Shown here one piece after another: positions 1,694-48,271 of a DNA stretch of 64,000 nt (position 1 is its first letter; each line of letters opens with the position of its first letter). The stretch lies in assembly GCA_000431135.1 (NCBI GenBank), contig HF987891.1, positions 7,286 to 71,285 of the forward strand, written 5' to 3'. This DNA comes from Clostridium sp. CAG:590 (GTDB taxonomy: Bacteria > Bacillota > Clostridia > Lachnospirales > Lachnospiraceae). The translations under genes were made by a program, and so were the position numbers. The notes below the pieces were generated by a model that saw only the letters and a list, made by a program, of their open reading frames with translations, ran no database searches and had not been told where the DNA came from.

Positions 1694-1780
1694 AATTATA
1701 TGTCCTTTCTCTGATAAAAGTATATACGGATTTTAACATTTTCACAGGCACATTACAAGTAGAGGAATTATGAACAGGAT

Positions 1781-1900
1781 GGTCATAATTATGACCAAAA
1801 ATTCATAAATGGGTATCGTGTAGCCATAATTGTACATAAAATATACATAAATGTATCTGGAATATTCATAAATGGCACTGTTTTGTTTATTGAAATTCAT
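1781..1900. promoter_or_regulatory. Perfect 16-bp palindrome GGTCATAATTATGACC followed by iterated CATAAATG(G) motifs in a 480-nt AT-rich intergenic region
   Basis: Read directly; a related element recurs at 41869-41950 (see findings). Confidence 0.3.
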
Positions 1901-2177
1901 AATTTTAAACTATAAAATGAGATATATCAACCGGATAACAAACATTATGATGAAGATTTACAAGTAAAAATAAGAAAGGAATGATAAAATGCCTTAAAAC
2001 GACTGGGGAAGAAGCAGTAAATTCGTGTTTTTGCATAATAAATTACTTGCTTATCCTTTGGGAATCATCTATAATAAGCTTAATTATGTATAATAAGAGA
2101 CAAGTGGACGAGCAAGGGTTCATTTGGGTTTAGGATAAGGTGAACTAAGAAGGATATTCCGGAATTAGTATTATATT

Positions 2178-4109
2178 TTGGAAGGGGAATTTGTTATGAA
2201 GAAGATTAGTTTTAGAGTGAGGAGTTTTGACAAAGAACAATTTCTGACCTTTAACATTGATAATGAGGCTGAGTTGGATGAGGAGCTGTTAGACTACCTG
2301 GAAGAAGAGGAACCGGCAGGGATTGTTCCGGTAATCTTTGAAGAGGGTGAAGAGTTTGATACATTTTCTTATAATGTGACGGATAAGATTCGCTTGAGTG
2401 AATTGTCCGAACAGGAGATCAATGCGGAGATGGTATTGTTAGTACTTCGGGGATTGGTAATGGCACTGATCGATATGGCGGAGTATCGTGTTCCGGTATC
2501 TTATCTTGTGTTGAATCGTCATTATATTTATATTGATTCTGATTACAAAGTAGAATTTGTCTGTATCCCTTTGGAAGAGATGCGAGAGGATGTTGATATC
2601 AGTCATTTCCTCCGTAATTTTCTTGCAAGTCTGCGTTTTGAATCGTCTGACAATGATAATTATGTTGCAAGATTATTTACATATATCAATAATCATGAAG
2701 TATTTAATCTTCGGAATATGTTAAGTCTCGTAGAAACACTTATGGAAGATCTCGGAATTGAGATTCCGGATGATGCGAATGAGATATATGCAGAATATCA
2801 TGAGGTGGAAGAGGTAACATCTGATACGACTGTTCTGACAAGTGAAGAGGAGACGGATATTTCCCGGGTGATGGATGATCTGGCGGCAGCAGAAGAATTA
2901 GATGATGCGGAAGATATTGAAACAGCAATGAGTGATCTGGCGGCACAGAGTGAAGAAGATACCGGCAAACTTGCTGCTGAGGGAGAAGTGGATGAGCCTG
3001 AAAAAGTAGAGGAAGAGGAAGCCGAGGAACTGGAAGAAGCAGCAGAAGAGGAAGGCGAGGAACCGGAAGAGATAGAAGAAGAGGAAGCCGAGGAGCCGGA
3101 AGAGGTAGAAGAAAAGGAAGCCAGCGAGCCGGAAGAGGTAGAAGAAGAGGAAGCCGAGAAGCCGGAAGAAGTAGAGGAAAAGGAAACTGATGAGTCAGAA
3201 TCAGAAGAGGCAGAAGAAGCCGAGAAACCGGAAGAAGTAGAGGAAAAGGAAACTGATGAGCCAAAAGAGGCAGAAGAGAAAACCAAGAAACCGGAAGAAG
3301 TAGAGGGTGAAGAACCGGAGCAAAAACCAGCAAAGAAATCAGTGTTGGAATTAGATGAAGAGAGCCAGGAGATGGTGAACAAACTGAAAGAGAAGCTGGC
3401 CGGAAGCAAGAAAGAGAAACAACCAAAGCATACTGAAAAAGAAATAAAGAAACCTACATTTAAGACAAAAGATACATCATCTGTTGGTGTTGTAATCCAG
3501 GATGATCTGGATGAATTTTTGGCAGAAAAAGAGATGGAGGAACAGGTCACACATCATGAAGATTCTGGTCTTAAGATCCGCAAGAATATCAAAGTCAGCC
3601 GTGCCAGCATTTTAAAGAATACACAGGAAGAATTGAAGGCTGCAGAGGAGAAAGAGGCGGAACAGAAAGCCTTAGAGGAAGTGACAGAAGCGGAAGACGA
3701 AGTGACAGAAGTGGCAGAAACGGAAGATGAAGAAGTAGTAAGCAACTCTATCTTAAGTCAGACAATCAGCGGGGCGACCGGACTGTTAAGAGGCAATGTG
3801 AATGTTCCGAAGGTTAATCCTTATCTGATCCGTGTTAATACGAATGAGAGAATTATGATTACAAAACAGAACTTCAAAGTTGGGAAAGCAAGTATGGGTG
3901 TAGATTATACAGTGAAGGGAAATGGTGCAGTCAGCAGAGTGCATGCAGTGATTATGAACAAAGACGGTATCTATTATATTCGTGATAACAAATCTACAAA
4001 TCATACATATGTAAATGGTAAGATGCTTGAAGAAGGAGAGAATGAATTGTTAACACAGGATTGTAAGATTGTTCTTGGTGATGAGGAATTCATATTCAAG
4101 TTGCGTTAA
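2178..4109 (+). CDS. FHA-domain protein with a long acidic repeat linker
   Basis: 643 aa; C-terminal FHA signature (GKASMGVDYTVKGNGAVSRVHAVI...YYIRDNKSTNHTYVNGK); central E/P-rich repeats EEAEEPEEVEE; RBS GGAAGGGGAA upstream. Confidence 0.8.
   Translation: MEGEFVMKKISFRVRSFDKEQFLTFNIDNEAELDEELLDYLEEEEPAGIVPVIFEEGEEFDTFSYNVTDKIRLSELSEQEINAEMVLLVLRGLVMALIDMAEYRVPVSYLVLNRHYIYIDSDYKVEFVCIPLEEMREDVDISHFLRNFLASLRFESSDNDNYVARLFTYINNHEVFNLRNMLSLVETLMEDLGIEIPDDANEIYAEYHEVEEVTSDTTVLTSEEETDISRVMDDLAAAEELDDAEDIETAMSDLAAQSEEDTGKLAAEGEVDEPEKVEEEEAEELEEAAEEEGEEPEEIEEEEAEEPEEVEEKEASEPEEVEEEEAEKPEEVEEKETDESESEEAEEAEKPEEVEEKETDEPKEAEEKTKKPEEVEGEEPEQKPAKKSVLELDEESQEMVNKLKEKLAGSKKEKQPKHTEKEIKKPTFKTKDTSSVGVVIQDDLDEFLAEKEMEEQVTHHEDSGLKIRKNIKVSRASILKNTQEELKAAEEKEAEQKALEEVTEAEDEVTEVAETEDEEVVSNSILSQTISGATGLLRGNVNVPKVNPYLIRVNTNERIMITKQNFKVGKASMGVDYTVKGNGAVSRVHAVIMNKDGIYYIRDNKSTNHTYVNGKMLEEGENELLTQDCKIVLGDEEFIFKLR
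2990..3320 (+). repeat. Imperfect tandem coding repeat (units about 33-39 nt) encoding an (E-A-E-K/E-P-E-E-V-E-E-K-E)n acidic linker
   Basis: Repeated gaagaggaagccgagga(a/g)ccggaagaggtagaa units; generates the spurious antisense ORFs 2740-3550. Confidence 0.6.
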
Positions 4110-4226
4110 TTAGAAATGGTAAGAGACCATTGCATGAAGATGTGTAGGAGAGTCTTTAGTGCGATGGTCTTTTCTTATCATTTTCGTAATTGTTAGAGAT
4201 GGAAACAGAAGATTGAGGAGAGTGGA

Positions 4227-5000
4227 ATGGAGATTATAGCGGCCTGTTATTCAGATATTGGGAGATTTAAGCAGATTAATCAGGATTCGTTGTCTGTCAG
4301 GATTGTGAATTCCCCACATGGTAAGATTGCCTTTGCGTTAATTTGTGATGGCATGGGAGGTCTGGAACATGGGGAGCTTGCAAGCAAAGAGGCAATTCTG
4401 GCAATGAACCAATGGTTTCAGGATGAATTTGCTCAATTAGTAGCAGAGAACAGGGTAACGGAAGACAGGTTATACAAACAGTGGCAGGATGTGATAGAGA
4501 GTGTGAACGGACGTCTTGCGGCATATGCACAGACTCAGGGCGTGTCGATGGGAACAACACTTACAGCATTGCTGTTATATAGGGATAATTATTATATTTG
4601 TCATGTTGGAGATAGTCGGATCTATAAGATAGCGGATCGCATATTGCAGATAACGGAAGATCATTCGCTTGTTGCAAAAGAGGTGGAATTAGGTTATCTG
4701 ACCAAAGAACAGGCATTGGTAGATCCGAGACGTAGTGTATTGTTACAATGTGTTGGGGCATCTGACACGGTCAATCCACAATTTGAAAAAGGACAGATTC
4801 CGGAACGGGTGACGTTTGTGTTATCTTCCGATGGATTTGTGCACATGTTGAGTGAAGAAGAGATTTTTCAGTATTTTCAACCGGATCAGATTCGGAATAA
4901 GGAACAACTAACTGCAATATGCAAAGAGGCGACAGAAATTGTAATGGAGCGGGGCGAAAGAGATAATATTACCGTGGCTGCACTTACCTGCAGACAGTGA
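4227..5000 (+). CDS. PP2C-family Ser/Thr protein phosphatase (Stp-like)
   Basis: 257 aa; LICDGMGG metal-binding motif and typical PP2C layout; immediately upstream of the kinase. Confidence 0.85.
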   Translation: MEIIAACYSDIGRFKQINQDSLSVRIVNSPHGKIAFALICDGMGGLEHGELASKEAILAMNQWFQDEFAQLVAENRVTEDRLYKQWQDVIESVNGRLAAYAQTQGVSMGTTLTALLLYRDNYYICHVGDSRIYKIADRILQITEDHSLVAKEVELGYLTKEQALVDPRRSVLLQCVGASDTVNPQFEKGQIPERVTFVLSSDGFVHMLSEEEIFQYFQPDQIRNKEQLTAICKEATEIVMERGERDNITVAALTCRQ

Positions 5001-5035
5001 ACAGGTAGATATTAGGTTGAGAGAGGGTAGCGTGT

Positions 5036-7060
5036 ATGACTAGAGTTGGCACTGTATTGGGTGGCAAATATGAAATACTTAAAAAAATAGGGCAAGGTGG
5101 AATGTCTATTGTTTATGTGGCAATGGATACCCGGTTGAACAAGCAGTGGGCGGTTAAGGAGATCAAACAGAATCCGAAACAGGACACAAGAACACTTTTA
5201 AAAGGTTTACAGATGGAAGCTAACATTTTGAAAATGGTAGATCATCCTGTGTTGCCAAGAATTGTTGATATTATTAATTATAATGGAACGGTTTTTGTTG
5301 TAATGGATTATATCGAGGGACGGCCATTGAGTGAGGTGTTGAAGTTAGAAGGAGCGCAGCCGCAGGAAAAGGTGATCGAATGGGCGAAGGATCTGTGTAG
5401 TGCGTTGGATTATTTGCACTCTATGAATCCGCCGATCATTTATCGGGATATGAAGCCGTCTAATATTATGCTGAAACCGGATGGAAAAGTAAAAATGATT
5501 GATTTTGGTACGGCAAAGGAATTTGATGTAGAAAGCCTTGCGGATACGACAGCGCTTGGAACCAGAGGGTATGCAGCGCCGGAGCAGTTTGGGGATGCAA
5601 GAGGGCGAGGTATTCACAAAACAGATGCGAGAACAGATATATATAGTTTGGGTGCAACGCTTTATCATGTACTGACAGGAAAGAATCCAAGTGAACCGCC
5701 GTATGTGATCAAGCCGATTCGTGATTGGGATCCGTCGTTATCAAGTGGATTAGAGAAGATCATTAACAAATGCACTATGCCGAATCCGGAAGATCGTTAT
5801 CAGTCTTGTACGGAGCTGATATATGATCTGGAACATTATGAGGAGTTGGATGATGCATTTAAGAGATCGTGCTTGAAGAAGATGCGCAGCTTTTTGATCT
5901 GCGCGGGGTTGACGGTTACTTTTGCGGCAGTTGCAATTGGTGGATATATCGGAAATGAACGGGAAAAGAAACTGAATTATGATAATCTGATCAACGAAGG
6001 TTATGCAGATGTCGTACAGGGAGATTATGAAGGAGCAGCCGGTTTATATGTAGATGCGATCACGCAGGTAGATGGCAGCCGGAATGAAGCATATCTGGAT
6101 TTGCTGGATTTGTATATCAATTATATGAATGATGCCGAGACAGGACTTAGCAGGGTAACATATTACATAGACCAACAGTACGATTCAATTGATAAGGATC
6201 AGAAATTATTATTGACGGTTGCGATGGATTATTTCGATGTATTAAAAGATTACAAATCCAGTGCATATTATTTTAATATGCTGGATCAGAAAGAACATCC
6301 GGAGGCGGTATATTATTCAACAATCGCACTTGCGATGGGTGAGCTGAATGTAGATTATGAGAGTCTGACGTTTAATTTGAAGAATTTTGAATCAACAAAT
6401 GATGCTTCCACAATTTCAATTAATAAGTTGATGAATTACCGGTTGTTGTGTATTGTATATGCAAGGAATTTGCAGCAAATGGGAGATGCGGCCGACAGAT
6501 TGATCGAAGCGGCGAATAAGGGACTTGCAGTACTTGAAGTATATGATGATGATAGTGTGAAAGCGGAGTATTACACTATTTATAATCAATATCTTGCTCT
6601 TGCATATGAGAGACTTGGACAAAAATATATAGAAGAGGATCCGCAACGCTCACAGGAGAATTACGAAAAAGCATTGGAATGTTGTGATTTTATATTAGGC
6701 ATGGTAACAGCGGGTGACGGCAAGACGGTTGGCAGTATTACAGATGAGAAACTTCGGGAGGCAAAATATTGCCAAAAAGCAGAGATATATGAAATGCTGC
6801 AGGAGTACGACAAGGCGGATGAGGTGTATATTCAGGCTGAGGAGGAGTTTGGCAGGACGAGTATAGCGGTGTATGCCGGACATTTGTCTTTGCTCTGTAA
6901 GATGGAGGAATTGAAGACTACGGATGTTGAAAAATGGGATTATAACAGACTCCATAAGCTTTATGAACAGGGACAACAGGTGCCTGAGATCCAGAATGAC
7001 TATCGGTGGAAACAGCTGACACAGAAGCTTTCTCCATTGTTTGGAAAGAATGGGGGATGA
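5036..7060 (+). CDS. Hanks-type Ser/Thr protein kinase with a single TM helix and a C-terminal helical-repeat (TPR-like) ectodomain, no PASTA
   Basis: GQGGMSIV P-loop, AVKEI, YRDMKPSNIM catalytic loop, DFG, APE; TM near residues 285-305; extracytoplasmic region rich in Y/L/D, about 370 aa. Confidence 0.85.
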   Translation: MTRVGTVLGGKYEILKKIGQGGMSIVYVAMDTRLNKQWAVKEIKQNPKQDTRTLLKGLQMEANILKMVDHPVLPRIVDIINYNGTVFVVMDYIEGRPLSEVLKLEGAQPQEKVIEWAKDLCSALDYLHSMNPPIIYRDMKPSNIMLKPDGKVKMIDFGTAKEFDVESLADTTALGTRGYAAPEQFGDARGRGIHKTDARTDIYSLGATLYHVLTGKNPSEPPYVIKPIRDWDPSLSSGLEKIINKCTMPNPEDRYQSCTELIYDLEHYEELDDAFKRSCLKKMRSFLICAGLTVTFAAVAIGGYIGNEREKKLNYDNLINEGYADVVQGDYEGAAGLYVDAITQVDGSRNEAYLDLLDLYINYMNDAETGLSRVTYYIDQQYDSIDKDQKLLLTVAMDYFDVLKDYKSSAYYFNMLDQKEHPEAVYYSTIALAMGELNVDYESLTFNLKNFESTNDASTISINKLMNYRLLCIVYARNLQQMGDAADRLIEAANKGLAVLEVYDDDSVKAEYYTIYNQYLALAYERLGQKYIEEDPQRSQENYEKALECCDFILGMVTAGDGKTVGSITDEKLREAKYCQKAEIYEMLQEYDKADEVYIQAEEEFGRTSIAVYAGHLSLLCKMEELKTTDVEKWDYNRLHKLYEQGQQVPEIQNDYRWKQLTQKLSPLFGKNGG

Positions 7061-7065
7061 TTGTT

Positions 7066-7971
7066 ATGTATGAGATTATGTTTTATGCAGGAACCGTACT
7101 TGCGTGTCTGTTTTTAATTATATCCATTATTCTATTTATTAAAAATGGTGTATGGAAACTGATGGGAGATGTAACCGGTCTCAATGCAAGAAGAGCGATT
7201 AAGAAATTAGATAAAAAGGGTGCAGAGGATACTTCGAAGACGGAAGCGATTCATCAGGAAGTCAGTAAGGTATTGGTTCGTCGGGCAACTACAACAGGAT
7301 CATTGCAGGCGGTAACGGAATCAATCGAAAAAGACAAAGCGCAAAGATCTGACAGGAAAAAAACACGGAAACGTCGCACAAGAGAAGAAAAGACGATACT
7401 TTTACAGAATACACAGGAGCAGGCTAACAGCAATAATATATTTGAAATAGAAGATGAGATGATCATATTAGCAGGTGACCAAAAAGATTCTGTGGCAAAG
7501 GAAAATGAGGCTGAAGGTGAATACACCACATTGTTGACGCCGGGAGGTTCTGCGAATGTAACGGATGAGAATACAGATGAGATTACGACCCGGTTATATG
7601 CAGAGGATGTTACGACAGATGTACTTTCAGAGGATGACGTGACGGATGTGCTATACACAGAAGAAGACCGGCAGACAGCATTGCTGACGCCGGAAGGAGA
7701 TGACAGTCAGACGACCTTGTTGACACCGGAAGGGGATGATAGTCAGACGACCTTGTTGACGTCGGAAGGAGATGACAGTCAGACGACCTTGTTGACACTA
7801 GAAGGAGATGACAGTCAAACGACCTTGTTGACACTAGAAGGAGATGACAGTCAAACAACATTGTTGACACCGGAGGCGGAGATTACACCGTTTGAGCCGG
7901 TATTACAGGAAGATGAGGAATTAATGAGTCTGTTAAAGGATGCTGTAGCGAAGAATCAAGGCAGAGATTAG
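7066..7971 (+). CDS. Single-pass membrane protein with a charged region and six copies of TTLLTPEGDDSQ
   Basis: N-terminal TM (FYAGTVLACLFLIISIILFI); start chosen at ATG 7066 with GGGGGA RBS (in-frame ATG 7057 overlaps the kinase stop); C-terminal 13-aa tandem repeats. Confidence 0.55.
   Translation: MYEIMFYAGTVLACLFLIISIILFIKNGVWKLMGDVTGLNARRAIKKLDKKGAEDTSKTEAIHQEVSKVLVRRATTTGSLQAVTESIEKDKAQRSDRKKTRKRRTREEKTILLQNTQEQANSNNIFEIEDEMIILAGDQKDSVAKENEAEGEYTTLLTPGGSANVTDENTDEITTRLYAEDVTTDVLSEDDVTDVLYTEEDRQTALLTPEGDDSQTTLLTPEGDDSQTTLLTSEGDDSQTTLLTLEGDDSQTTLLTLEGDDSQTTLLTPEAEITPFEPVLQEDEELMSLLKDAVAKNQGRD
7671..7880 (+). repeat. Near-perfect 39-nt tandem repeat, about 5.5 copies (cagacgaccttgttgacaccggaaggggatgatagt)
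   Basis: Read directly; only 1-3 substitutions per copy. Confidence 0.8.
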
Positions 7972-7992
7972 AAAAAAGGGGAATGACGACGA

Positions 7993-10900
7993 TTGAATAG
8001 GGGAAGAAAATACCGAAAGACAATTGCATATTGCATGATCTGGTTATTGCTTTTGCAGTTGCTGCCGGGGGAAAGAATGGTTGCCACGCAAGCTGCTGAT
8101 GTACAACAGATTGCACAGATTACGATAACTGCACAGAATGAATATACACCGGATGATTGTAAAAAGATCAACGGGGAAGATGTATGGGAGTTGTCCTATG
8201 TGATTGACCATTTAGGAGAAGGGAATCCTGTGTATCTCACAGTGAAACAGACAACAGATGGTTCGGATGTCCTGTTGACGGACAAAGAATTATTAACCGG
8301 AACAGATCTGGAATGGGATACAGAGGGTAGAAGTGATAGTGTGGCAGTGCATTTTCAGGATAGTGCATCTGATAAGGCAACCTTAATCCTGAAGAAGCCG
8401 CAAACGGAATGCGATTATGAGATTGCAATTGAGGTTGAAGATCTTGCAGGTGTTCAGGTTGCAAAAGAGACAAAGAATATCCATTTTGGGAAAGCAATTG
8501 CGCCACCGGATATCGTGCTCAGGAATGTGGATGCAGTGGTTGCGGGATCTGTTGTGGATTCTGTGGCAGACGGAACCTGGACGAATAAAGATGTAGCATT
8601 TGATGTAGAGGTGAAGGATGGGACGACCGGTCTGGTTAAGGTGACTTATGAGTTAGATGGACAACCGGTAGATTCTCCGCAGACATGGGATGCGGCCGCA
8701 CCGGAAAAGAATGCGGTAACAAAAAAGTTTTCTTTTGATACAAGTGCGGCTTCTAGTCAGGGACATGTTTTAAAAGTGACGGCGGAGAATGCGAAGGGAA
8801 AAGACGCAACGCTCACAAAGTATATCTTAATAGACAAAGGGAAACCAGCAATCTCTTTGCATGTAAAAGGTGATGAGACGAAAACGGTTGAGAATACCGT
8901 GTATAAGGCACCGTTCGAGATTGAGGCAGCAGTAACGGATGATCTGCCAACAGATATGGTGTCGGTTCAATATAAGGTCAATGGAATATCAGACAGCAAC
9001 AAACAGAATGTTCGAACATTTGATGCAGGGCAGTATGTTGTTTCGGCAATTGCTACGGATGCAGCCGGTAATTCGACCGAATCTGCCGAGGTAACATTTC
9101 AGGTGGACGGAGCTGCCCCGACGGTGACAAAGCTCTCTTCACAGAGTGATGGAGGATACTACCGCTCCAAACAGACATTTCAATATCAGGTAGATGATGA
9201 TTGCTTAAATGGCGGCAAAACAACGCTTACGGTTAAGAGAACGATAGATGGTATCAGTACATTGGATCCAAAGACGGTTTCCTTGTCGGATACAGAGAAT
9301 ACGGTAACGTATGATTGCGAAGAGGAAGGATTGTATGAATTTACAATAACCGCGGAAGATGCAGTGGGAAATACGCTGCCGGAGCCGTACACATTTCGTT
9401 TTATCATTGACAAGAAAGCACCAACGATTTCAGTAGATGCAAGTGATAAGAATGGAACCGGGCTGGCAAACGAAGGAATGTCCAGACAGGGTGTGAAAAT
9501 TTCTTTGCAGATAACAGACCGGAATCCGGATCTTTCAGGATATTCTATTGTTACAGAGAGAACGGATGGGGATGGCCATAAAACGACCGTTACCCGGTAT
9601 GGAACGCAGATTGCGTGGAACACAGAGGGTGATCCGGCAAAATGCGAGGAGATTCGCAAGTCTGTGGAACTCCCTTATGAGGAAGAGGGATATTATACGG
9701 TTACATTTTCGGCAAAGGATCAAGCCGGCAATGACAATAGTAAGAAGTTTTCCTTTTACATTGACCGTTCAGCTCCGGTTATCAATGAAAATGACATTGC
9801 ATACCGGTCAAATGGTATCTCATTGAGTTTAAAATATGGAATGATCTTTAGTAGCCGGGCAATTCAGGTAACATTCCCGGTAAGAGACAGCATTTCGGGA
9901 TTGTTATATGATGGCAATGCCGGTGCGGTGTATGTAACGATCGGAACAAAGGATCAGAAAGCACCGGATAGTATGATTTATCCGGCTGACCGGATTGGAA
10001 ACAGTGAGTATTACTCTGTAATGCTTCCGTTAGAGAAGGTGAAGCAGTTTGATAATCAGATTACAATCTGGGCAAAGGATCAATTGTTAAATGAAGGGTA
10101 CGCAGAATCAAAGCGGACAATCTATAATGAGAATCCTCCGGTTGTTGCAATGGAGTGGGCAGACAGTAATACTGCAAAGGAGGGTGACTGGTCTGATCGG
10201 GACGTAGTCTATCATACAGTGGTGGAAGATACCTTTTGCGGTATCAGGAAGATCACCTATAAGAAGATTGAGAACGGACAGGAGCAGATTGTAAAAACGG
10301 TTGATTTTACATCATTGGAGAATCAGCAGACGGAGTTTGTCAAGAGACAGGAATATGATTTTGTTGCATCTGATTCTGCAACGACAACGGATGGGTATGA
10401 GTTAAAGATTGAAGTGGAAAATAACTGCGGCAGTACGCAGGAGATGAGCAGGATGGTTTATGTGGATAAGGAACCGCCGAAAGTAGAATTATCCGGAGTG
10501 CAGAATGGTAAGCATTATAATCAGAATCAGACCATACATACCAGAGTAACAGATGTCTCATATAAGGGAACTGCAAATGGAACCAGACAGTCCGCCGTGA
10601 CAACGTATCATGTAACAAGAATGTATGATGGAAAGACGGAAACACTTTTTTGGAAGGATATGATTTCAGATCATATGACGAGTGAACGGGATGATGTTAT
10701 TGCCGAAGAAGGAACGTATGAGATATATGCGAAAACAGTCGATTGTGCAGGCAATACAACAACGTCGGATACGATACGGTTTACGATTGATAAGTATGCT
10801 CCGGTCATTGAGAAAGTACATGTTATGAAAGAACCGTCCGGGGAGCAGATGCCAAACGCAGATGGCATTTATTATCTGAATCGGAATGGACGATATATCG

Positions 10901-13605
10901 TAGAAGCTTCTGATCATTTTCCGAGTGATGATGCACATATTGATGTTGCGTTTGATTATGCGGGAGTTCAGGCAAACACAGAGTCATATGTATTGAATGT
11001 ATCTCCACTTAGAACGACTGCACAGTATCGCTTTACAACAGAGGGAAAATACCGCGCAACAGTAACGGGAACAGATAAGGCAGGAAATATAGCAACGCCT
11101 GTACAGACGGATATCGTTGTGGATAAGACAAGTCCGAAGCTTTCCATTTGTGGTATGCAGTCGGGAACAATGACAAAGAACCCGGTAACACTGACATATG
11201 AGGCGACTGATAAGAATCATGATTTTGATGAATATCAGGTAACGGTGCATCGTACAACGTTGGATGGAGAAAACGAAACGATTGTGGAAAAGGGAGCTGT
11301 ATCCTGGAAACAAGAAGGTTACGATAAGAATGCGCAGGTAGATTATACAACACAGAAGACATCGGTCTATAGTAAAGAAGGTAACTATACGATCACGTTT
11401 GAGGGAACGGACCGGGCAGGCAATGTGGCGACAGCGCGAACCGTTACATTTTCGATCGATCATACAGCGCCGGCAATATCGAATGTACAGTATTGGAATG
11501 AGAATAGTCTGTTACAGCCCCGATATAGCATTATATTTAGTAATAAAATGATCCGCGTACAGTTTCAGGTTACGGATCGTGTAACAGGGGTACAGGATGA
11601 TCTGGTGTATGTAACATTGGGAACGGCTGCAGAACGGGCGGAGAATACACCGTTATATATTGCACGAAAAGGAAAAGATAGTAATTATTATGTATATGTT
11701 CCGCAGGATGTGTTACTTACAGAATATGATGGTGTGATCAGTATCTGGGCGAATGACCGGTTGAAAAATGAATCCAATGTACAGTCCGTGCGTATGATCC
11801 AGAATACAGATCATGCTGTGATTGTGATGGATTGTGATATTGATTATACAACATGGCAGAGCAGGGACGTTACATTTCACACCAAAGTGAAGGATAACAA
11901 GTCCGGTCTTAAGGAAGTGGTATATTCGATTGATGGCAAAGAGACAAAAAAGGTGGTATTCAAGGAATTTGTGAAAGAATACAGTTATGATCTCACAGCC
12001 ACAAAGACCGCAGAAAAGGCAAGTGGCTACACCATGTCCATTAAGGTTGTAAATAATACCGGAACAGAAAGTGAATCACACAGACAGGTGTACGTTGATA
12101 AGGAAGCACCGGTTGTCAGATTATCGGGTGTAACGAATGGCACGCATTATAATAAGAATGTAACAATCACAACGAATGTCGGGGATGTATCTTATAAGAA
12201 TACCAAAACGATATATTATGTGAAGCGTACGTTAGACGGAAAGACCTATACGGAAAAAGTGTCCGCCTGGATTATGAGTAAGAGGGAGGAGCAGAGAAAT
12301 CAACGCTTCCGCAAGGAAGGTACCTATAAGATCTATGCGGTAACAACCGACAGCGCAGGCAATATTACCCGTTCCAATACGTTGCGGTTTGTTATTGATA
12401 AGACTGCTCCAAAGCTTGCAATTTCCGGAACAACAAATGGTTCCATGAATGCAGGAGATGTGTCGCTTACATTTGACCTTACGGATTCCTATTATCAGAC
12501 GACGGATGCCGGAATCCGTATTGAGAAAAAGTTAGACGGAGCAACCACGACAGAAGAGATCTCTGCATTCCCGAAACAGGGGAAACATTCGTCTATGAAC
12601 AGGACGTTTTCGACAGATGGAACGTATCAGATTACCTTTACGGCAAAAGATAAAGCGGGTAATCGGGCGGTGACAAAAACGATTTCTTTTTCAGTTGATA
12701 AGACAAAACCACAGATCAGCATTACGGGGACTTCGAATTATGAGCAGTGGGATGAACCGGTTGCAATCCGATTTGCGGTGGAGGAATCCTACTATGCAGG
12801 TAACCATATCACCATTCGGGGAACCCGCACAGATATCAATGGCAAGGAAGAGGAGATTGACCTGCCTAAAATGGTGAATTCGTCCAAGTTAAGCAGCTTA
12901 CAGCAGATCTTTAGTGAGGATGGAATCTATGATTTTGTAATATCGGCAAGAGACGAGGCGGGTAATCAGGATGAGAAGGAAATTCATTTTGTATTGGATC
13001 AGACCAGCCCGGAAATACACAAAGTTGCAGAATATAGCGGTGGATATTTCCAGGAATTTCAGATTGCGGATACATTAGAAGAGGTGTTCAGGGATCTTAC
13101 GGTTGTATCGTATCGCATCCTGTTAAATGGAGTAGAATACGATGGAACAACGCCGGTTACGGATGAAGGAAAGTATAATCTTTCGGTGGAAGTTCAGGAT
13201 GAATTAGGACATAAGAGTACGGAAACTGCAGAGTTTATTATTGACCATACTGCACCAAAAGTAATATTTACCGGAGTGAAAGACGGGCAGGCGGTATCAG
13301 AAAGAGGAACCGTTACATTATCGCTGACCAATCCGGAAGATGAAATTACAAAGATTACCATGAATGACCAGGAGTATGATCCGGATACAAGGCAGTTAGA
13401 GTATTCGGAGTACGGAACATACCGGATCAATGTGGATTGTGTGGATAAAGCGGGTAACAAAGTGACAAGAACACTACAGTTCAATTATTATAATCCATTG
13501 ACGACAACCATTTTATTTGCTATTATGGGTGGACTCATTTTAATAACCTGTATCTGGTTATGGATGAGAACCATGAAGAAAGAAAAGGAAGAAGAAAGAA
13601 TATGA
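7993..13605 (+). CDS. Giant (1870 aa) secreted, C-terminally membrane-anchored surface protein with at least 11 Ig-like repeat modules
   Basis: TTG start with signal peptide (NRGRKYRK + hydrophobic + ATQA/AD); recurring module starts (I/V)D(K/H/R)(T/K/S)(A/S)P(K/T/V)(I/L/V)S..G; C-terminal TM LTTTILFAIMGGLILITCIWLW + KKEKEEER; no LPXTG. Confidence 0.75.
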   Translation: MNRGRKYRKTIAYCMIWLLLLQLLPGERMVATQAADVQQIAQITITAQNEYTPDDCKKINGEDVWELSYVIDHLGEGNPVYLTVKQTTDGSDVLLTDKELLTGTDLEWDTEGRSDSVAVHFQDSASDKATLILKKPQTECDYEIAIEVEDLAGVQVAKETKNIHFGKAIAPPDIVLRNVDAVVAGSVVDSVADGTWTNKDVAFDVEVKDGTTGLVKVTYELDGQPVDSPQTWDAAAPEKNAVTKKFSFDTSAASSQGHVLKVTAENAKGKDATLTKYILIDKGKPAISLHVKGDETKTVENTVYKAPFEIEAAVTDDLPTDMVSVQYKVNGISDSNKQNVRTFDAGQYVVSAIATDAAGNSTESAEVTFQVDGAAPTVTKLSSQSDGGYYRSKQTFQYQVDDDCLNGGKTTLTVKRTIDGISTLDPKTVSLSDTENTVTYDCEEEGLYEFTITAEDAVGNTLPEPYTFRFIIDKKAPTISVDASDKNGTGLANEGMSRQGVKISLQITDRNPDLSGYSIVTERTDGDGHKTTVTRYGTQIAWNTEGDPAKCEEIRKSVELPYEEEGYYTVTFSAKDQAGNDNSKKFSFYIDRSAPVINENDIAYRSNGISLSLKYGMIFSSRAIQVTFPVRDSISGLLYDGNAGAVYVTIGTKDQKAPDSMIYPADRIGNSEYYSVMLPLEKVKQFDNQITIWAKDQLLNEGYAESKRTIYNENPPVVAMEWADSNTAKEGDWSDRDVVYHTVVEDTFCGIRKITYKKIENGQEQIVKTVDFTSLENQQTEFVKRQEYDFVASDSATTTDGYELKIEVENNCGSTQEMSRMVYVDKEPPKVELSGVQNGKHYNQNQTIHTRVTDVSYKGTANGTRQSAVTTYHVTRMYDGKTETLFWKDMISDHMTSERDDVIAEEGTYEIYAKTVDCAGNTTTSDTIRFTIDKYAPVIEKVHVMKEPSGEQMPNADGIYYLNRNGRYIVEASDHFPSDDAHIDVAFDYAGVQANTESYVLNVSPLRTTAQYRFTTEGKYRATVTGTDKAGNIATPVQTDIVVDKTSPKLSICGMQSGTMTKNPVTLTYEATDKNHDFDEYQVTVHRTTLDGENETIVEKGAVSWKQEGYDKNAQVDYTTQKTSVYSKEGNYTITFEGTDRAGNVATARTVTFSIDHTAPAISNVQYWNENSLLQPRYSIIFSNKMIRVQFQVTDRVTGVQDDLVYVTLGTAAERAENTPLYIARKGKDSNYYVYVPQDVLLTEYDGVISIWANDRLKNESNVQSVRMIQNTDHAVIVMDCDIDYTTWQSRDVTFHTKVKDNKSGLKEVVYSIDGKETKKVVFKEFVKEYSYDLTATKTAEKASGYTMSIKVVNNTGTESESHRQVYVDKEAPVVRLSGVTNGTHYNKNVTITTNVGDVSYKNTKTIYYVKRTLDGKTYTEKVSAWIMSKREEQRNQRFRKEGTYKIYAVTTDSAGNITRSNTLRFVIDKTAPKLAISGTTNGSMNAGDVSLTFDLTDSYYQTTDAGIRIEKKLDGATTTEEISAFPKQGKHSSMNRTFSTDGTYQITFTAKDKAGNRAVTKTISFSVDKTKPQISITGTSNYEQWDEPVAIRFAVEESYYAGNHITIRGTRTDINGKEEEIDLPKMVNSSKLSSLQQIFSEDGIYDFVISARDEAGNQDEKEIHFVLDQTSPEIHKVAEYSGGYFQEFQIADTLEEVFRDLTVVSYRILLNGVEYDGTTPVTDEGKYNLSVEVQDELGHKSTETAEFIIDHTAPKVIFTGVKDGQAVSERGTVTLSLTNPEDEITKITMNDQEYDPDTRQLEYSEYGTYRINVDCVDKAGNKVTRTLQFNYYNPLTTTILFAIMGGLILITCIWLWMRTMKKEKEEERI

Positions 13606-14270
13606 TAAAAGCAGTTGTTTTTGATATGGATGGTGTTATTTTTGATTCGGAGCGTTTATACCGTAAGCATTGGATGATCACCGGGGCAGAATATGGAATT
13701 CCGGAAGAGGAGATGGAAGATCTTTGCAACCATATTGCGGGAGCAACCAGACAGCATAATGAACAATTGATGAAGGATCATTTTGGAGCAGATTTTGATT
13801 ATGATACATTCCGGGAGAAGACGATGACACGGATGGATGCGGAGATCGAACAGAATGGTCTGGATCTGAAACCGGGAGTCAGGGAATTATTTGCATATCT
13901 GAAAGAGCATCATTACAAGATAGGACTTGCAACTTCGACACAGGAGGAACGAGCAGGAAAGAATTTGCGTCGTGCCGGGATCCTGGATGTATTTGATAAG
14001 ATCGTATATGGCGGAGTTGTTCCGAATGGGAAACCGGCACCGGATATATACTTAGAAGCATGTCGGAGATTGGCAGTTGAGCCGGACGAAGCGCTTGGAG
14101 TAGAAGATTCCATTAACGGCGTGAAGTCGTCTTCTGCAGCGGGATTATACACAGTTATGGTGATCGATCTGATTCAGCCTACGGAAGAGATTCGGCCGTT
14201 GGCAGATCAGATATATGATTCTTTGTTTGATGTAATGGAGCTGTTAGAACAACAAAACAAAACGAAATAG
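13602..14270 (+). CDS. HAD-IA family hydrolase (beta-phosphoglucomutase-like phosphatase)
   Basis: MIKAVVFDMDGVIFDSE motif I, later GLATST and GKPAPD motifs; ATG overlaps the giant gene stop (ATGA). Confidence 0.8.
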   Translation: MIKAVVFDMDGVIFDSERLYRKHWMITGAEYGIPEEEMEDLCNHIAGATRQHNEQLMKDHFGADFDYDTFREKTMTRMDAEIEQNGLDLKPGVRELFAYLKEHHYKIGLATSTQEERAGKNLRRAGILDVFDKIVYGGVVPNGKPAPDIYLEACRRLAVEPDEALGVEDSINGVKSSSAAGLYTVMVIDLIQPTEEIRPLADQIYDSLFDVMELLEQQNKTK

Positions 14271-14831: not shown

Positions 14832-14972
14832 ATGAAACATATTAAGACTTTAACAGACAAAACATTAAAGAACACAATGGAAAAAGGCGGATGTGGCGAG
14901 TGCCAGACATCTTGTCAGTCAGCTTGCAAGACATCTTGTACAGTTGGTAACCAGACTTGTGAGAACAAATAA
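14832..14972 (+). CDS. scfA: SCIFF (six-cysteines-in-forty-five) ranthipeptide precursor
   Basis: 46-aa ORF MKHIKTLTDKTLKNTMEKGGCGECQTSCQSACKTSCTVGNQTCENK; matches the conserved SCIFF pattern (GGCGECQTSCQSACKTSC); GAGAGG RBS; absent from the ORF track because it is under 60 aa. Confidence 0.85.
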   Translation: MKHIKTLTDKTLKNTMEKGGCGECQTSCQSACKTSCTVGNQTCENK

Positions 14973-15102: not shown

Positions 15103-16449
15103 GTGATACATCAGTATAAGAATAACGGCTATAACATTGTATTGGATGTCTGCAGTGGATCGGTTCATGTAGTAGATGATCTGGTATATGATGTAATCGC
15201 CTTGTATGAAGAGATGGATCCGGATGAGATTGTGAAGAGATTACCGCAATATCCGGAGAATGAGATACGGGAAGCGTATGATGAGATAACAGAATTAAAA
15301 GATCAGGGACAGCTTTTTACAGAAGATGTTTACAAGGATGCAATCATCGATTTTAAAAAACGCAAGACGGTTGTCAAGGCATTATGCCTTCATATAGCGC
15401 ATGATTGTAACCTTGCCTGCAAATATTGTTTTGCGGAAGAGGGAGAGTATCATGGTGGAAGAGCCCTCATGAGCTATGAAGTTGGGAAGAAAGCTTTAGA
15501 TTTTCTGATTGCGAATTCCGGTAACCGGGTGAATCTGGAAGTAGATTTCTTTGGTGGAGAGCCGCTGATGAATTTTCAGGTTGTGAAGGATCTGGTTGCA
15601 TATGGCAGAAGCAAAGAGAAAGAGTTTAATAAGAAGTTCCGTTTTACATTGACAACGAACGGCATGCTGCTGACAGATGAGGTAATGGAATTTGCCAACA
15701 AAGAGATGGCGAATGTTGTATTGAGCATCGATGGTCGAAAAGAAGTACATGACTTTATGAGACCAACCCGCAATGGCAAAGGAAGTTATGATCTGATCAT
15801 AGATAAGTTCAAGAAGATGGCTGAGATGAGACATCAGACCAATTATTATGTGAGAGGAACTTTTACACATTATAATCTGGATTTTTCTAAGGATGTTCTG
15901 CATTTGGCAGATATGGGATTCAAACAGATCTCAGCAGAGCCGGTGGTGGCTCCGGATGATATGGATTATGCAATTCGGGAGGAAGATCTTCCGCAATTGT
16001 TTGAAGAATATGACAATTTAGCAAAAGAGATGGTCAAGAGGGAAAAGGAAGGTAATGGATTTAATTTCTTCCATTTTATGATCGATCTTACAGGTGGACC
16101 ATGTTTATATAAGAGATTATCCGGTTGTGGTTCCGGAACGGAATACTTAGCAGTTACACCTTGGGGTGATCTGTATCCATGTCATCAGTTTGTTGGAATG
16201 GAGCAGTTCAAGTTAGGAAATGTTGATACCGGAATAGAGAAAACGGATATTGTAGATGAATTTAAACTTTGCAACGTATATGCAAAGGACAAATGTAAGG
16301 ACTGTTTTGCAAGATTCTACTGTAGCGGGGGTTGTGCAGCTAACTCATATAATTTCCATGGCAATTTATTGGATGCATATGATATCGGCTGTGAATTAGA
16401 ACGTAAACGTGTAGAATGTGCAATCATGATAAAGGCAGCTTTAGCCTAG
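15103..16449 (+). CDS. scfB: SCIFF radical SAM/SPASM maturase (thioether-forming)
   Basis: 448 aa; CLHIAHDCNLACKYC radical SAM motif plus C-terminal Cys-rich SPASM region (CKDCFARFYCSGGCAAN); directly downstream of scfA. Confidence 0.85.
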   Translation: MIHQYKNNGYNIVLDVCSGSVHVVDDLVYDVIALYEEMDPDEIVKRLPQYPENEIREAYDEITELKDQGQLFTEDVYKDAIIDFKKRKTVVKALCLHIAHDCNLACKYCFAEEGEYHGGRALMSYEVGKKALDFLIANSGNRVNLEVDFFGGEPLMNFQVVKDLVAYGRSKEKEFNKKFRFTLTTNGMLLTDEVMEFANKEMANVVLSIDGRKEVHDFMRPTRNGKGSYDLIIDKFKKMAEMRHQTNYYVRGTFTHYNLDFSKDVLHLADMGFKQISAEPVVAPDDMDYAIREEDLPQLFEEYDNLAKEMVKREKEGNGFNFFHFMIDLTGGPCLYKRLSGCGSGTEYLAVTPWGDLYPCHQFVGMEQFKLGNVDTGIEKTDIVDEFKLCNVYAKDKCKDCFARFYCSGGCAANSYNFHGNLLDAYDIGCELERKRVECAIMIKAALA

Positions 16450-40746: not shown

Positions 40747-41580
40747 TTAAATGCTTGCTAAAGTACGAATTGCATCATCCTTAATGATCAATTTGAAATG
40801 CTCTGAGAAATAATATGGCATTGCATAATTTGCTTTTACTTTGGTTCCATATTCACTCAACAGATTGCATGCACGCTGATAATTTTCAATATTGTCTGAC
40901 TGGTTATTCACGATCAGATAATAGTGGTTGTCAAATGGACTCTTATATAAAGAATTGGCATCTTTATAGATTGGAGCAACCATAGCGGCTGCTTTGCTGA
41001 TATCGTTGATATTCTGGAAAGAGAAAATGCGGTATCCGGCAATCTTAGCCTGCTCTTTTTTCTTATCTTTGTTCTTATCAGACTTCTTTTTGTTGGAATT
41101 CTCTCTGATTGCAGCGGATAGTGGAACGAAGTTCGGATTCTTACCGGATTCGGTCTGTTTCTTTACTTGTTCAATATTCTCTACAATATCTGAGATTGTT
41201 TCTAATAAAGATTCCGGTGATGATATAAAACCGGTGTCTTCATCGTCGTCGGAATCAGAGTCATCGTTGTCATCATCAATTTCAATGTTAGCATATTTTG
41301 AAAAACGGGAGAAACGTGTATCCAGTTCTTCCGGATCATCTACCTTTGTTATAATTAAGATCAGACAATCAGGAGAGACAGGAATCGCTTCGATCATAAG
41401 AGGAATATCATTTACCTCAAATCCCAATTCGTCAGCAGCCTGTTCCATCATATCACGAAAAAGCTCTTTCGCTTTGTCGGTTCCATAAGCTAATTCGTTC
41501 AACATAAGCTCTCTGTCTGCTAAGTCTTCTTTGTTCAGTGTGCAGCGAATCTGATTCTCGCTTAGTCTTTCTAACTTCAT
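40747..41580 (-). CDS. mecA: Adaptor protein MecA
   Basis: Start at the internal ATG (MKLERLSENQIRCTL...) with AAGGAG RBS; N-terminal MecA domain, acidic/Ser linker, C-terminal ClpC-binding domain. Confidence 0.8.
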   Translation of the reverse strand: MKLERLSENQIRCTLNKEDLADRELMLNELAYGTDKAKELFRDMMEQAADELGFEVNDIPLMIEAIPVSPDCLILIITKVDDPEELDTRFSRFSKYANIEIDDDNDDSDSDDDEDTGFISSPESLLETISDIVENIEQVKKQTESGKNPNFVPLSAAIRENSNKKKSDKNKDKKKEQAKIAGYRIFSFQNINDISKAAAMVAPIYKDANSLYKSPFDNHYYLIVNNQSDNIENYQRACNLLSEYGTKVKANYAMPYYFSEHFKLIIKDDAIRTLASI

Positions 41581-41868
41581 AGAATCATCTCCTTTATATG
41601 TGGCAGATATGATATCTGCATAAACATGCAAAAATGTCTGGTTACAGAAGAAATCAGGGATTCTTTCTGTAGGTGTCCTAAACAATAGCATATTTTCAAC
41701 AGAAATGCAACTTTCTTATAGTTTAGTATAGCATAATCTCAGTAAAAAATGATTAGATATTTATGGATTTCTATGAAAATACCGCTCTATTTAAGTGTAT
41801 CACAAAATGTGATCAAGTAAAGTATCTGCGCAGGAGTTCATAAAAAAAACATAATTATGTACAAAAAA

Positions 41869-46717: not shown

Positions 46718-48271
46718 ATGGAATTCAATAAGAAAGAAATTGAGAACTATGCATGGAAAACAAAGAATATCATGCAATTTACAATAGATGATGCGATCAA
46801 TATTCCGGAGAACCTGTTGGATGTGGAGCGATTGGTTCTGGTAAAGGGGAATGTAGTTGTCGAAGAGACACAGGCAATGGTTGACCGTTTTCAGGTGAAA
46901 GGAATGTTACACTATCAGATCCTATATAGTGGAAATAAGGAAAGCAGTGTGTTTGACAGCTTAGACGGAAAGGTACCATTTATTGAATATATTAATGCAG
47001 ATGGAACGAAAGAGACGGATTACATAGAAGTGCACGCCTGTTTAAATGATCTGACGGTTACGATGCTGCACTCCCGGAAAATTAACTTAAAAGCATTGAT
47101 CGGTCTGGACTATCAGGTGAAAGAGAAAGAGCAGTTTGAGGCTGTATGCGAAGTGTCTGATGAGGACGGAACGGAAGTTCTAAGCAAAAATTATTCGATG
47201 ATGTGCCTGCATTTACAGGAGACAAAAAAGGCACAAGTGTCAGAAACGGTAGAAATTCCGGCGAATAAACCGGATATATATCAGGTTATCTGGAAGAGTC
47301 TTTCGGTAACAGGAGTTCAGATGAAATCAGCAGACGGATATGTGTTAGCGAGTGGTAATCTGAATCTGTTCCTTATATACACTGCAGAGGAGGAAGAAAT
47401 GCCGATACAGTATTTTACGGTGGAGGTACCATTTGAACAACGGATAGAGGCTCCGTTAGCAAATGAGGATATGATTTCGGGAAGTGTGTTAAGTCTGGAT
47501 CAATATCATATTACGGTTATGCAGGATGAACGGGGACATGACAGAGTCGTTGAGTTAAATACAGAATTTACGGTGGAATTGAAGCTATATGGCACAGAAG
47601 ATCTGCAACTGGTAAGGGATGCATATTCCACCCGGGTGGACATTACGCCTCAGTATCGGAGTTTTGTTTTACAACATTTGCTTGTACGTAATTGTGCAAA
47701 AGCAAAAGTGTCGGATACATTGACAATGCCCAAACAACAGAGCATTTTACAGATCTGTAATGTGGAAGGATCGGTATCTGTTGATGAAACACAGCCAACG
47801 GCAAAGGGTATTATGGTAGAAGGTGTGGTTGGAACGCAGATCACATATCTGAACAAGGCTGAAAATGGAATGTTATCTTCAGTTAATTTTGATATTCCAT
47901 TCTCTTATGAGATTGAAGTGCAGGGGATGGGAGAGGGGGTTACCTATTCCATTATGCCATTCTTAGATCAGATTCATGCTATACAGATGGGAGAAAATGA
48001 GATCGAGGTAAAGGCAGAGGTGTCTCTTGAGGTGCTGGCATTTACCAACGAACGTGCCAGAGCAGTGCTGGATCTTCAGGTGCAGCCGATTGATCAGAAA
48101 AGAAAAAGAGAACTGCCAAGCGTGACGGGATATGTTGTGAAAAAAGAAGATACACTGTGGAGTATTGCCAAGAATTATTATACAACGATTGAGAACATAA
48201 AAGCATATAATGAATTGGAATCGGATACATTAGAACCGGGAGAGAGACTCGTAATCCTAAAAGATGCATAA
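46718..48271 (+). CDS. DUF3794-repeat protein with C-terminal LysM domain (SipL-like spore-coat morphogenetic protein)
   Basis: 517 aa; C-terminal LysM (YVVKKEDTLWSIAKNYYTTIENIKAYN...PGERLVI); size and architecture match C. difficile SipL. Confidence 0.55.
   Translation: MEFNKKEIENYAWKTKNIMQFTIDDAINIPENLLDVERLVLVKGNVVVEETQAMVDRFQVKGMLHYQILYSGNKESSVFDSLDGKVPFIEYINADGTKETDYIEVHACLNDLTVTMLHSRKINLKALIGLDYQVKEKEQFEAVCEVSDEDGTEVLSKNYSMMCLHLQETKKAQVSETVEIPANKPDIYQVIWKSLSVTGVQMKSADGYVLASGNLNLFLIYTAEEEEMPIQYFTVEVPFEQRIEAPLANEDMISGSVLSLDQYHITVMQDERGHDRVVELNTEFTVELKLYGTEDLQLVRDAYSTRVDITPQYRSFVLQHLLVRNCAKAKVSDTLTMPKQQSILQICNVEGSVSVDETQPTAKGIMVEGVVGTQITYLNKAENGMLSSVNFDIPFSYEIEVQGMGEGVTYSIMPFLDQIHAIQMGENEIEVKAEVSLEVLAFTNERARAVLDLQVQPIDQKRKRELPSVTGYVVKKEDTLWSIAKNYYTTIENIKAYNELESDTLEPGERLVILKDA

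Follow-up and report, generated by a model that had tools for sequence, protein, structure and literature searches.

We suggest that five adjacent genes in the DNA of Clostridium sp. CAG:590 given above form a stand-alone TseJ-TseF-TseD-TseH-TseI cassette, that is, a self-contained threonine-phosphorylation switch built on a wall-spanning protein. We hold this reading with middling confidence; "stand-alone" here means without linkage to EssC ATPase or Tad pilus genes. The stretch that was analysed (the window) is 64 kb long, and the locus occupies positions 2178-13605. Its open reading frames (ORFs) were examined by Pfam, NCBIfam, PADLOC and Tandem Repeats Finder scans. The proteins are called J (DUF6382 and FHA domains), F (PP2C phosphatase), D (kinase), H (transmembrane-repeat protein) and I (giant protein with immunoglobulin (Ig)-like repeats).

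J, F, D, H and I match TseJ, TseF, TseD, TseH and TseI of T7SSe, a variant type VII secretion system (T7SS), one for one in architecture. A full-text literature search for DUF6382 led to a sole source, the description of that system (Garrett et al. 2024, Microlife 5:uqae013, PMC11217815). The preliminary description of this DNA stated that no described system with this architecture could be named, and this claim of novelty was too strong because the architecture is already in the literature. What is new here is the context, namely a stand-alone cassette at a conserved Lachnospiraceae locus and relatives linked to Tad genes, together with the model-based assignment of DUF6382 as probably pseudokinase-like and an array of TxVL motifs in H. 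The homologous loci fall into three clades: the window's own, a Coprococcus/Wujia clade and a distant, Tad-linked clade.

The five proteins of the cassette

All five genes are on the plus strand and closely packed between 2196 and 13605, with intergenic gaps of 117 (J/F), 35 (F/D), 5 (D/H) and 21 nt (H/I). The preliminary description had listed five co-oriented genes with short gaps, encoding an FHA protein, a PP2C phosphatase, a Hanks kinase, a transmembrane-repeat protein and an 1870-aa Ig-repeat protein, and had pointed to an acidic repeat linker in J, a sixfold array in H and a helical, non-PASTA kinase ectodomain. The ORF coordinates (gaps of 5-117 nt), Pfam and sequence features, Tandem Repeats Finder and the match of the kinase ectodomain profile to TPR proteins, respectively, bear these points out.

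J (2196-4109, plus strand, 637 aa) is a putative TseJ-like cytoplasmic adaptor. Translation from the ATG at 2196, which has the ribosome-binding site GGAAGGGG ahead of it, gives a protein identical at every residue to CCX88637.1 ('Clostridium sp. CAG:590', 637 aa). The profile search of the N-terminal domain that had been proposed earlier identified Pfam DUF6382 (7e-13), and the second domain is FHA (2e-12). The DNA of the acidic linker is a tandem repeat of period 33/66 at 2994-3304. J is without a transmembrane helix and without a YukC Pfam match.

Modelled with AlphaFold2, the DUF6382 domain takes up a compact kinase-like fold (predicted local distance difference test (pLDDT) score 92.9). 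The best Foldseek match of the model in the PDB is YukC/EssB (6z0f, E 2.6e-5, TM-score 0.51). Next come entries for the Rv3910/MviN pseudokinase, among them that of its complex with the FHA domain of FhaA (3oun), and Staphylococcus aureus EssB. None of the catalytic kinase motifs is conserved in the DUF6382 family alignment. The kinase-like model and the missing catalytic motifs together suggest that J joins a soluble pseudokinase-like domain to an FHA domain. J would then be a single-chain mirror of the EssB-EssC(FHA) and MviN-FhaA pairs.

The FHA region of J is homologous to the published TseJ fragment (Fig. S4 of Garrett et al. 2024), with 41% identity and an E value of 4e-21. The linker of the window's J carries one TTVL site (SDTTVLT), and the linker of the published TseJ has the TTVL-type motif twice. 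TxVL motifs are enriched in the J linkers of two clades, with 128 observed vs 4.4 expected in the Tad-linked clade and 32 vs 3.5 in the window's clade. The actinobacterial FhaA/FhaB division proteins were considered as orthologues of J, a relationship that the preliminary description had named as a possible refutation, and were rejected. The NCBIfam model FhaB_Rv0019c gave 19 bits vs a cut-off of 125, and J lies among the genes for CorA, cyclophilin, HAD, DUF3792, SCIFF, radical SAM and SecDF proteins rather than in a rodA-pbpA-pknA-pknB neighbourhood.

H (7066-7971, plus strand, 301 aa) is a TseH-like membrane protein recognised by its sequence features, with no family in Pfam, NCBIfam or PADLOC. 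The gene starts at the ATG at 7066, 5 nt past the D stop codon, and a GTG at 7006 was set aside. The protein opens with an N-terminal transmembrane helix (aa 4-25); a basic juxtamembrane stretch then leads into a disordered acidic tail, which is predicted to be cytoplasmic by the positive-inside rule. We detected 10 T-x-[VL]-L sites in the tail (aa 110-267). Six of these are TT[VLI]L and stand in a tandem TTLLTPEGDDSQ array, visible in the DNA as a repeat of period 36 with 5.4 copies (7681-7874).

The motif is enriched in H orthologues of all three clades. In 87 distinct H orthologues from the three clades, 525 T-x-[VLI]-L sites were observed vs 23.3 expected from shuffles, with median z-scores of 9.6, 16.6 and 8.5 for the three clades and the logo [DE][DE][EA]-T-[TD]-[VL]-L. 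These proteins share the N-terminal transmembrane helix (MYEIMFYGG...), the basic juxtamembrane stretch and the acidic disordered tail, and the TxVL array is the sole feature of the tail conserved between clades. FHA domains read phosphothreonine plus the residue at +3, which is often Leu or Ile. Mycobacterial Hanks kinases prefer acidic residues before the Thr and hydrophobic residues after it. We propose that H may be a multi-site kinase substrate and an FHA docking array.

D (5036-7060, plus strand, 674 aa, Pfam Pkinase 3.9e-47) is a TseD-like Hanks Ser/Thr kinase. A kinase domain on the predicted cytoplasmic side (aa 12-256, nt 5069-5803) is followed by a transmembrane helix (aa 286-306, nt 5891-5953) and by a putative extracellular region (aa 307-674), which is all-helical and TPR-like. 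The catalytic Lys and the YRDMKPSN, DFG and APE motifs are near-invariant in 33 orthologues, and the kinase looks active. The ectodomain opens with a TPR-like repeat and its profile matches TPR proteins in the PDB; its single-sequence model (pLDDT 39.9) is too poor to use except for the all-helical content. F (4227-5000, plus strand, 257 aa, Pfam PP2C_2 1.5e-14) is a TseF-like PP2C (PPM) Ser/Thr phosphatase, predicted to be cytoplasmic. Membership of the two enzymes in a PASTA kinase/Stp1 module (PrkC-PrpC, StkP-PhpP) was rejected: Pfam finds no PASTA domain in D, the NCBIfam model PknB_PASTA_kin scores D at 218 vs a cut-off of 450, and Stp1/IreP (Stp1_PP2C) scores F at 174 bits vs an equivalog cut-off of 230.

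I (7993-13605, plus strand, 1870 aa) is a TseI-like giant envelope protein, characterised by Pfam and sequence features. Its start was placed at the TTG at 7993, which has AAGGGGA 10 nt ahead, because the signal peptide is otherwise left out; the gene call of the public contig begins at 8077 and removes it. The protein begins with a Sec signal peptide (aa 1 to ~34), continues with ~15 or more Ig-like/beta-sandwich domains and ends in a C-terminal transmembrane helix (aa 1839-1858, nt 13507-13566), followed by a short basic tail predicted to be cytoplasmic. Pfam detected Big_13 (8.8e-43), Big_3_3, PKD and DUF4625, and NCBIfam detected an OmpL47-type barrel and a LapB repeat. A sortase-anchored adhesin was considered and rejected, the C-terminus (...YYNPLTTTILFAIMGGLILITCIWLWMRTMKKEKEEERI) being without LPXTG and ending in the transmembrane helix and basic tail instead. 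The same helix and tail are present in 15/16 complete orthologues of the close clade, which are 568 to 1590 aa long.

Orthologues of I range from 568 to 1870 aa. Their membrane-proximal ~850-950 aa are alignable, and the distal part has been gained, lost and diverged. No ligand-binding domain was recognisable in I, only Ig-like stalk domains. The earlier label "adhesin-like" is not borne out for a protein that has neither a recognisable binding domain nor LPXTG and is conserved in its membrane-proximal part, not at the distal tip. The fast divergence and variable length suggest that pressure from phages or the host, acting on prominent gut commensals, is likely to target I.

Conservation and loss at one chromosomal site

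Searched exhaustively with HMMER, the DUF6382 domain yielded 1,280 representatives (50% clustering, E<=1e-3); this search was used instead of a word-indexed protein search, which returned 10 matches, mostly fragments, and missed full-length proteins. An alignment of 25 diverse DUF6382 domains (A1) was too diverse for locus scans, and narrow alignments were used for genomes (A2) and metagenomes (A3). The genome scan (one genome per GTDB species) gave 79 loci, all Lachnospiraceae-type, which were mapped by blastp vs the window proteins; 59 species-level loci were evaluable. The metagenome scan, carried out with a distant DUF6382 group 46-54% identical to the published TseJ, gave 80 loci (L085-L164), and 65 were evaluable.

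Among the 59 species-level loci, 43 have the FHA, PP2C and kinase genes in this order, 8 have FHA and kinase, and 8 have FHA alone; thus F was found in 43/59 and the kinase is kept in 51/59. The order FHA-PP2C-kinase was present in 63/65 metagenome loci. The preliminary description had proposed a synteny check, and the FHA gene followed by the kinase gene in 51/59 species loci and 63/65 metagenome loci refutes chance adjacency. Three clades whose FHA proteins are only 25-40% identical keep the order and orientation of the genes, a pattern that speaks against the triad having come to lie beside an unrelated giant adhesin by chance. On the PADLOC results an anti-phage defence kinase system could be invoked, as the defence models PD-T4-6 and mad6 match the kinase domain of D. 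This reading was rejected because these are matches to the generic kinase domain only, and J, H and I had no PADLOC match. We regard chance juxtaposition or a defence system as very improbable.

The cassette is found at a single site in the 59 evaluable Lachnospiraceae species, between cyclophilin and HAD-DUF3792-SCIFF-rSAM-SecDF (rSAM, radical SAM). In the window's clade, with J proteins 64-97% identical, it always lies between cyclophilin and HAD-DUF3792-rSAM-SecDF-RecJ. There, 18 loci have J followed by F and D, mostly then H and I. In 8 further loci (L007, L008, L009, L015, L020, L027, L032, L037), J is intact (577-720 aa) and is followed by HAD. These species have lost the kinase, phosphatase, transmembrane-repeat and giant-protein genes and are natural knock-outs, which implies an adaptor role, or a partner kinase, outside the cassette. 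In locus L012, the ORF past the kinase gene opens with an H-like transmembrane helix (MYYFMFYAG...) and continues as Ig-like sequence, and it may be an H-I fusion. Four loci (L008, L056, L060, L080) come from metagenome-assembled genomes titled Bacteroidales/Bacteroides, yet they are of Lachnospiraceae type with flanks 72-90% identical, and the genomes are likely mis-binned or mislabelled.

The second clade (J 31-41% identical, 25 loci) has the order cyclophilin - YceG/MltG - J - DUF6382/FHA paralogue - F - D - H - I. Among its members are Wujia, Coprococcus hominis, Coprococcus sp. OM04-5BH, Eubacterium sp. MSJ-21 and Lachnospiraceae bacterium C6A11. The paralogue between J and F (L040-L084; for example L069:11886-13772 and L083:4978-7023) is 350-940 aa long and more diverged, and its linker is without TxVL (1 site in 26 proteins). 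The stored flanks of this clade stop within I, and the downstream side was reached via the H homologue of Coprococcus eutactus. C. eutactus has a full cassette with an I protein of 1593 aa, followed by HAD, DUF3792, SCIFF, rSAM and SecDF, in the same slot as in the window. EssC, WXG100 and YukD were not found in its cassette region. The same slot is occupied across genera, and the cassette has thus been passed on vertically at one site in the chromosome.

The cassette evolves far faster than its flanks. In comparison with locus L004, the flanking proteins CorA and cyclophilin are 96% and 97% identical, and the cassette proteins D, J, F, H and I are 86%, 71%, 71%, 53% and 38% identical. It is dispensable in some species and has been lost piecemeal. 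This bears on the possibility that the locus is a cell-wall/division module of the PrkC/Stp1/FhaA type that lies beside a surface protein by chance. A kinase/PP2C/FHA triad is the classic content of such a module, and YceG/MltG is directly upstream in the Coprococcus/Wujia clade. In contrast, PASTA domains are absent, and D, F and J fall far short of the NCBIfam equivalog cut-offs. The cassette evolves much faster than its flanks, and its kinase, phosphatase, H and I genes are dispensable (lost in 8 species). We consider such a module quite improbable.

Upstream of J is an intergenic region of ~500 nt (1694-2195, plus strand), the position that YceG/MltG occupies in the Coprococcus/Wujia clade. 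It is the likely start of the operon by its sequence; the best promoter-like match at 1890-1918 (TTGAAA-17-TAAAAT) is a consensus match only. Downstream, the HAD hydrolase gene (13602-14270, plus strand) belongs to the conserved flank and lies outside the cassette; it follows J directly in 8 species and I in C. eutactus. Its ATG and the stop codon of I overlap (ATGA, 13602-13605), and no terminator-like site was found between the two genes. The overlap suggests that transcription reads through from the cassette into the downstream housekeeping operon and that translation of the two is coupled.

A SCIFF peptide of 46 aa (MKHIKTLTDKTLKNTMEKGGCGECQTSCQSACKTSCTVGNQTCENK) is encoded at 14832-14972 (plus strand), just upstream of its radical-SAM/SPASM maturase (15103-16449, plus strand). 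Its ORF is shorter than the default minimum of the ORF list, and in C. eutactus, too, the SCIFF-maturase pair comes after the cassette. The rest of the window contains housekeeping or unrelated genes, for CorA, cyclophilin, HAD, DUF3792, SCIFF and its radical-SAM maturase, SecDF, RecJ and RelA, and further on for HisS, AspS, a phosphotransferase (PTS) system, SipL, MetK and transketolase. The SipL (SPOCS and LysM domains; 46718-48271, plus strand) and MecA (40747-41691, minus strand) homologues indicate a spore-former of the Clostridia. A gene at 56735-60307 (plus strand) encodes a 1190-aa protein covered end to end by DUF5717_N and DUF5717 (E 2e-249), a conserved family unrelated to the cassette.

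Tad-linked relatives and the absent secretion core

The third clade places homologous cassettes in a different setting. In 63/65 evaluable loci the order is J-F-D-H-(small transmembrane ORF)-I, and the five-gene cassette ends a Tad/Flp operon of putative gut Clostridia (for example L121:259-9979 and L155:466-9983). The upstream genes, co-oriented and with gaps of ~10-20 nt, encode TadB/TadC (T2SSF), an Flp pilin (Flp1_like, 54 bits), a TadE-like protein, a 1,080-1,330-aa TadG-like/DUF5702 protein, an A24 prepilin peptidase and a TPR/WG-repeat protein. The operon also has a leucine-rich repeat (LRR) protein and two conserved unknowns (~265 and ~425 aa). Tad core genes were found in 14/18 lineages (80% J identity), and the other 4 are contigs of <5 kb.

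The small hydrophobic ORF between H and I in this clade (142-168 aa; L101:14923-15429, L145:14711-15196, L103:14725-15153) may correspond to TseK; the window lacks this ORF. In L089, a PMT_2 glycosyltransferase gene is inserted between J and F. The gene past I in one Tad-linked lineage encodes an unrelated PARG.

The cassette also stands directly downstream of Tad/Flp operons, and it is therefore not T7SS-specific. Its settings are three: beside EssC (published), behind Tad operons, and alone. The Tad-linked operons raise the possibility that the window's cassette acts in trans, as a regulator or accessory, on a Tad/Flp pilus whose genes lie elsewhere in the genome. Tad genes lie immediately upstream and co-oriented in 14/18 distant-clade lineages, and FHA-rich Tad-like systems are known (Kil of Myxococcus). 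Within 10 kb, Tad core genes were found in 0/84 loci of the window's and Coprococcus/Wujia clades, where the Tad scan matched generic LRR proteins only, plus an A24 peptidase ~7 kb upstream in two loci; there are none in the window. These absences make a Tad regulator rather improbable.

The core of T7SSe consists of TseA1/A2 (WXG100), TseB (YukD-like) and TseC (the EssC ATPase with FHA domains) (PMC11217815), and we did not detect it near the cassette. The window has no EssC-like ORF, the only other ORF of >1000 aa being that of the DUF5717 protein. No ORF of at least 500 aa with at least two Walker A motifs was found in ~160 loci of the three clades, 10 kb either side of the DUF6382 gene. 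On the public contig, the 10 kb lying upstream of the window contain housekeeping genes only. ORF inspection of the window, rather than a hidden Markov model scan, revealed no leftover small ORF (>=50 aa) resembling WXG100, YukD or TseK. A tblastn comparison of close and distant DUF6382 domains with plasmids gave no match.

These results bear on a split T7SSe, in which the EssC-type ATPase, WXG100 and YukD would be encoded elsewhere in the chromosome and I would be a wall-spanning conduit. The sole published description puts these five protein types beside EssC (PMC11217815), and the best Foldseek match of the DUF6382 model is EssB/YukC, the binder of EssC FHA domains. Against it stand the absence of an EssC-like ORF from the ~160 loci and from the window with its upstream 10 kb, the one housekeeping slot occupied across genera, the operonic setting with Tad genes elsewhere (then the PARG gene) and the piecemeal loss of the cassette in some species. 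We consider a split T7SSe unlikely, if somewhat less so than a Tad regulator.

Proposed switch and comparison with known systems

The stand-alone switch that we favour can be outlined as follows. Three single-pass membrane proteins would stand together: D with its TPR-like domain outside, I, held in the membrane by its C-terminal helix and extending across the cell wall and past it, and H with ~ten TxVL sites in the cytoplasm; J and F would be cytoplasmic. I and the TPR-like ectodomain of D are a plausible input side, sensing contact or envelope state. An envelope or contact cue, received via I and/or the D ectodomain, would activate D, which would phosphorylate the TxVL threonines of the H tail and the single TTVL in the J linker. 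The FHA domain of J would dock on these phosphothreonines (with Leu at +3). The pseudokinase-like domain of J, concentrated in this way at the membrane, would engage an effector encoded outside the locus, and F would reset the switch.

Several points weigh against this reading. In the FHA domain of J, the canonical phosphate-binding Arg is replaced by Lys ('GK'). The Lys is a family trait (GK vs GR in 89 vs 2 DUF6382 representatives) and is also borne by the published TseJ fragment. The TxVL counts within one protein are not independent, because the repeat copies in one H arise by tandem duplication. Seven loci of the window's clade (L010, L012, L017, L018, L030, L033, L036) have J-D-I without F and H, which were thus lost together, and in the 8 J-only species the adaptor must also work, or decay slowly, without kinase, H and I. 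TseD, TseF, TseH, TseI and TseJ were assigned to T7SSe by gene neighbourhood around EssC only (PMC11217815). The equivalence of D, F, H and I with their Tse namesakes is one of architecture only, because the TseJ fragment is the sole T7SSe sequence compared. The EssC and Tad searches cover the window and flanks, and such a machine may be encoded elsewhere in the genome.

We tentatively suggest, with some doubt, a broader role for the cassette. It could be an autonomous, portable Gram-positive module, in which a wall-spanning sensor and a multivalent phosphothreonine scaffold (poly-TxVL tail and pseudokinase-FHA reader) are plugged into different trans-envelope machines. If so, the machines would be T7SS in some Bacillota/Actinomycetota and Tad in gut Clostridia, and the module would act alone or in trans in Coprococcus and CAG-590. 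The status of TseD/F/H/I/J as core components of T7SSd/e/j would then need re-evaluation. The cassette occurs without a secretion ATPase nearby in dozens of abundant human/animal-gut Lachnospiraceae species, including C. eutactus. It offers tractable features: the acidic T-x-[VL]-L motif (peptide form DDSQTTLLTPEG), the GK-type FHA reader, the putative pseudokinase output domain and eight natural knock-outs.

Among known systems, T7SSe is the most direct comparison. TseD is a membrane Ser/Thr kinase whose extracellular part is helical, TseF a PPM phosphatase, TseH a protein with one transmembrane helix and an unstructured cytoplasmic stretch, TseJ a DUF6382 and FHA protein, and TseK a protein with one transmembrane helix; TseI/TsdI is large, with a Sec signal peptide, Ig-like domains and, at its C-terminus, a transmembrane helix, and was proposed as a wall-spanning conduit (PMC11217815). 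The five-protein set is partly present in T7SSd and T7SSj, and the T7SSj kinase ectodomain is TPR (PMC11217815). J shares with TseJ the 41% identical FHA region, the GK signature and the linker TTVL. The differences are that TseC, TseA1/A2, TseB and TseK were not found in the window or near ~160 related loci, and that the window's cassette occupies a vertically inherited slot among Lachnospiraceae housekeeping genes. Neither Lachnospiraceae nor Coprococcus is named in the main text or the supplementary files examined of PMC11217815.

EssB/YukC (T7SSb) and Rv3910-FhaA resemble J in the kinase-like fold without catalytic motifs, and both known pseudokinases pair with FHA domains: EssB/YukC binds the EssC FHA domains (PMC11217815), and the Rv3910-FhaA pairing is given by the title of PDB 3oun. 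The EssB/YukC pseudokinase precedes a transmembrane helix and an extracellular domain, whereas J has no transmembrane helix.

With Tad/Flp loci of Gram-positive gut bacteria, the likeness is the homologous cassette at the operon 3' end in the related clade, and the difference is that the window is without Tad genes. The Kil system of Myxococcus is FHA-rich, Tad-like and contact-dependent, with FHA signalling coupled to the machine, but its FHA proteins and ATPase fusion are unrelated in architecture to the cassette. A search of the literature on Tad with an FHA/kinase cassette in Firmicutes found nothing beyond Garrett et al. 2024 and the Myxococcus Kil paper.

The type VI secretion system (T6SS) threonine-phosphorylation pathway of Pseudomonas aeruginosa (PpkA/PppA/Fha1) likewise combines a membrane Hanks kinase carrying an extracytoplasmic sensor with a PP2C phosphatase and an FHA adaptor. 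The preliminary description drew this analogy, which is reasonable as a functional one, and the T7SSe authors invoke the same pathway together with the Agrobacterium TssL-Fha analogy (PMC11217815). In the Agrobacterium PpkA-TssL-Fha pathway, a Thr-phosphorylated membrane protein is bound by an FHA protein, as we propose for H and J. J was considered as a TagH/Fha1 orthologue and rejected: TIGR03354 VI_FHA gave 32 bits vs a cut-off of 120, through the FHA domain only, and the window has no T6SS genes. The T6SS pathway differs in being Gram-negative, in lying within T6SS clusters and in having no pseudokinase domain, TxVL array or giant Ig-repeat partner. Taken together, the cassette is a candidate for a general switch that acts on Gram-positive envelope machines, by analogy with the T6SS threonine-phosphorylation pathway.

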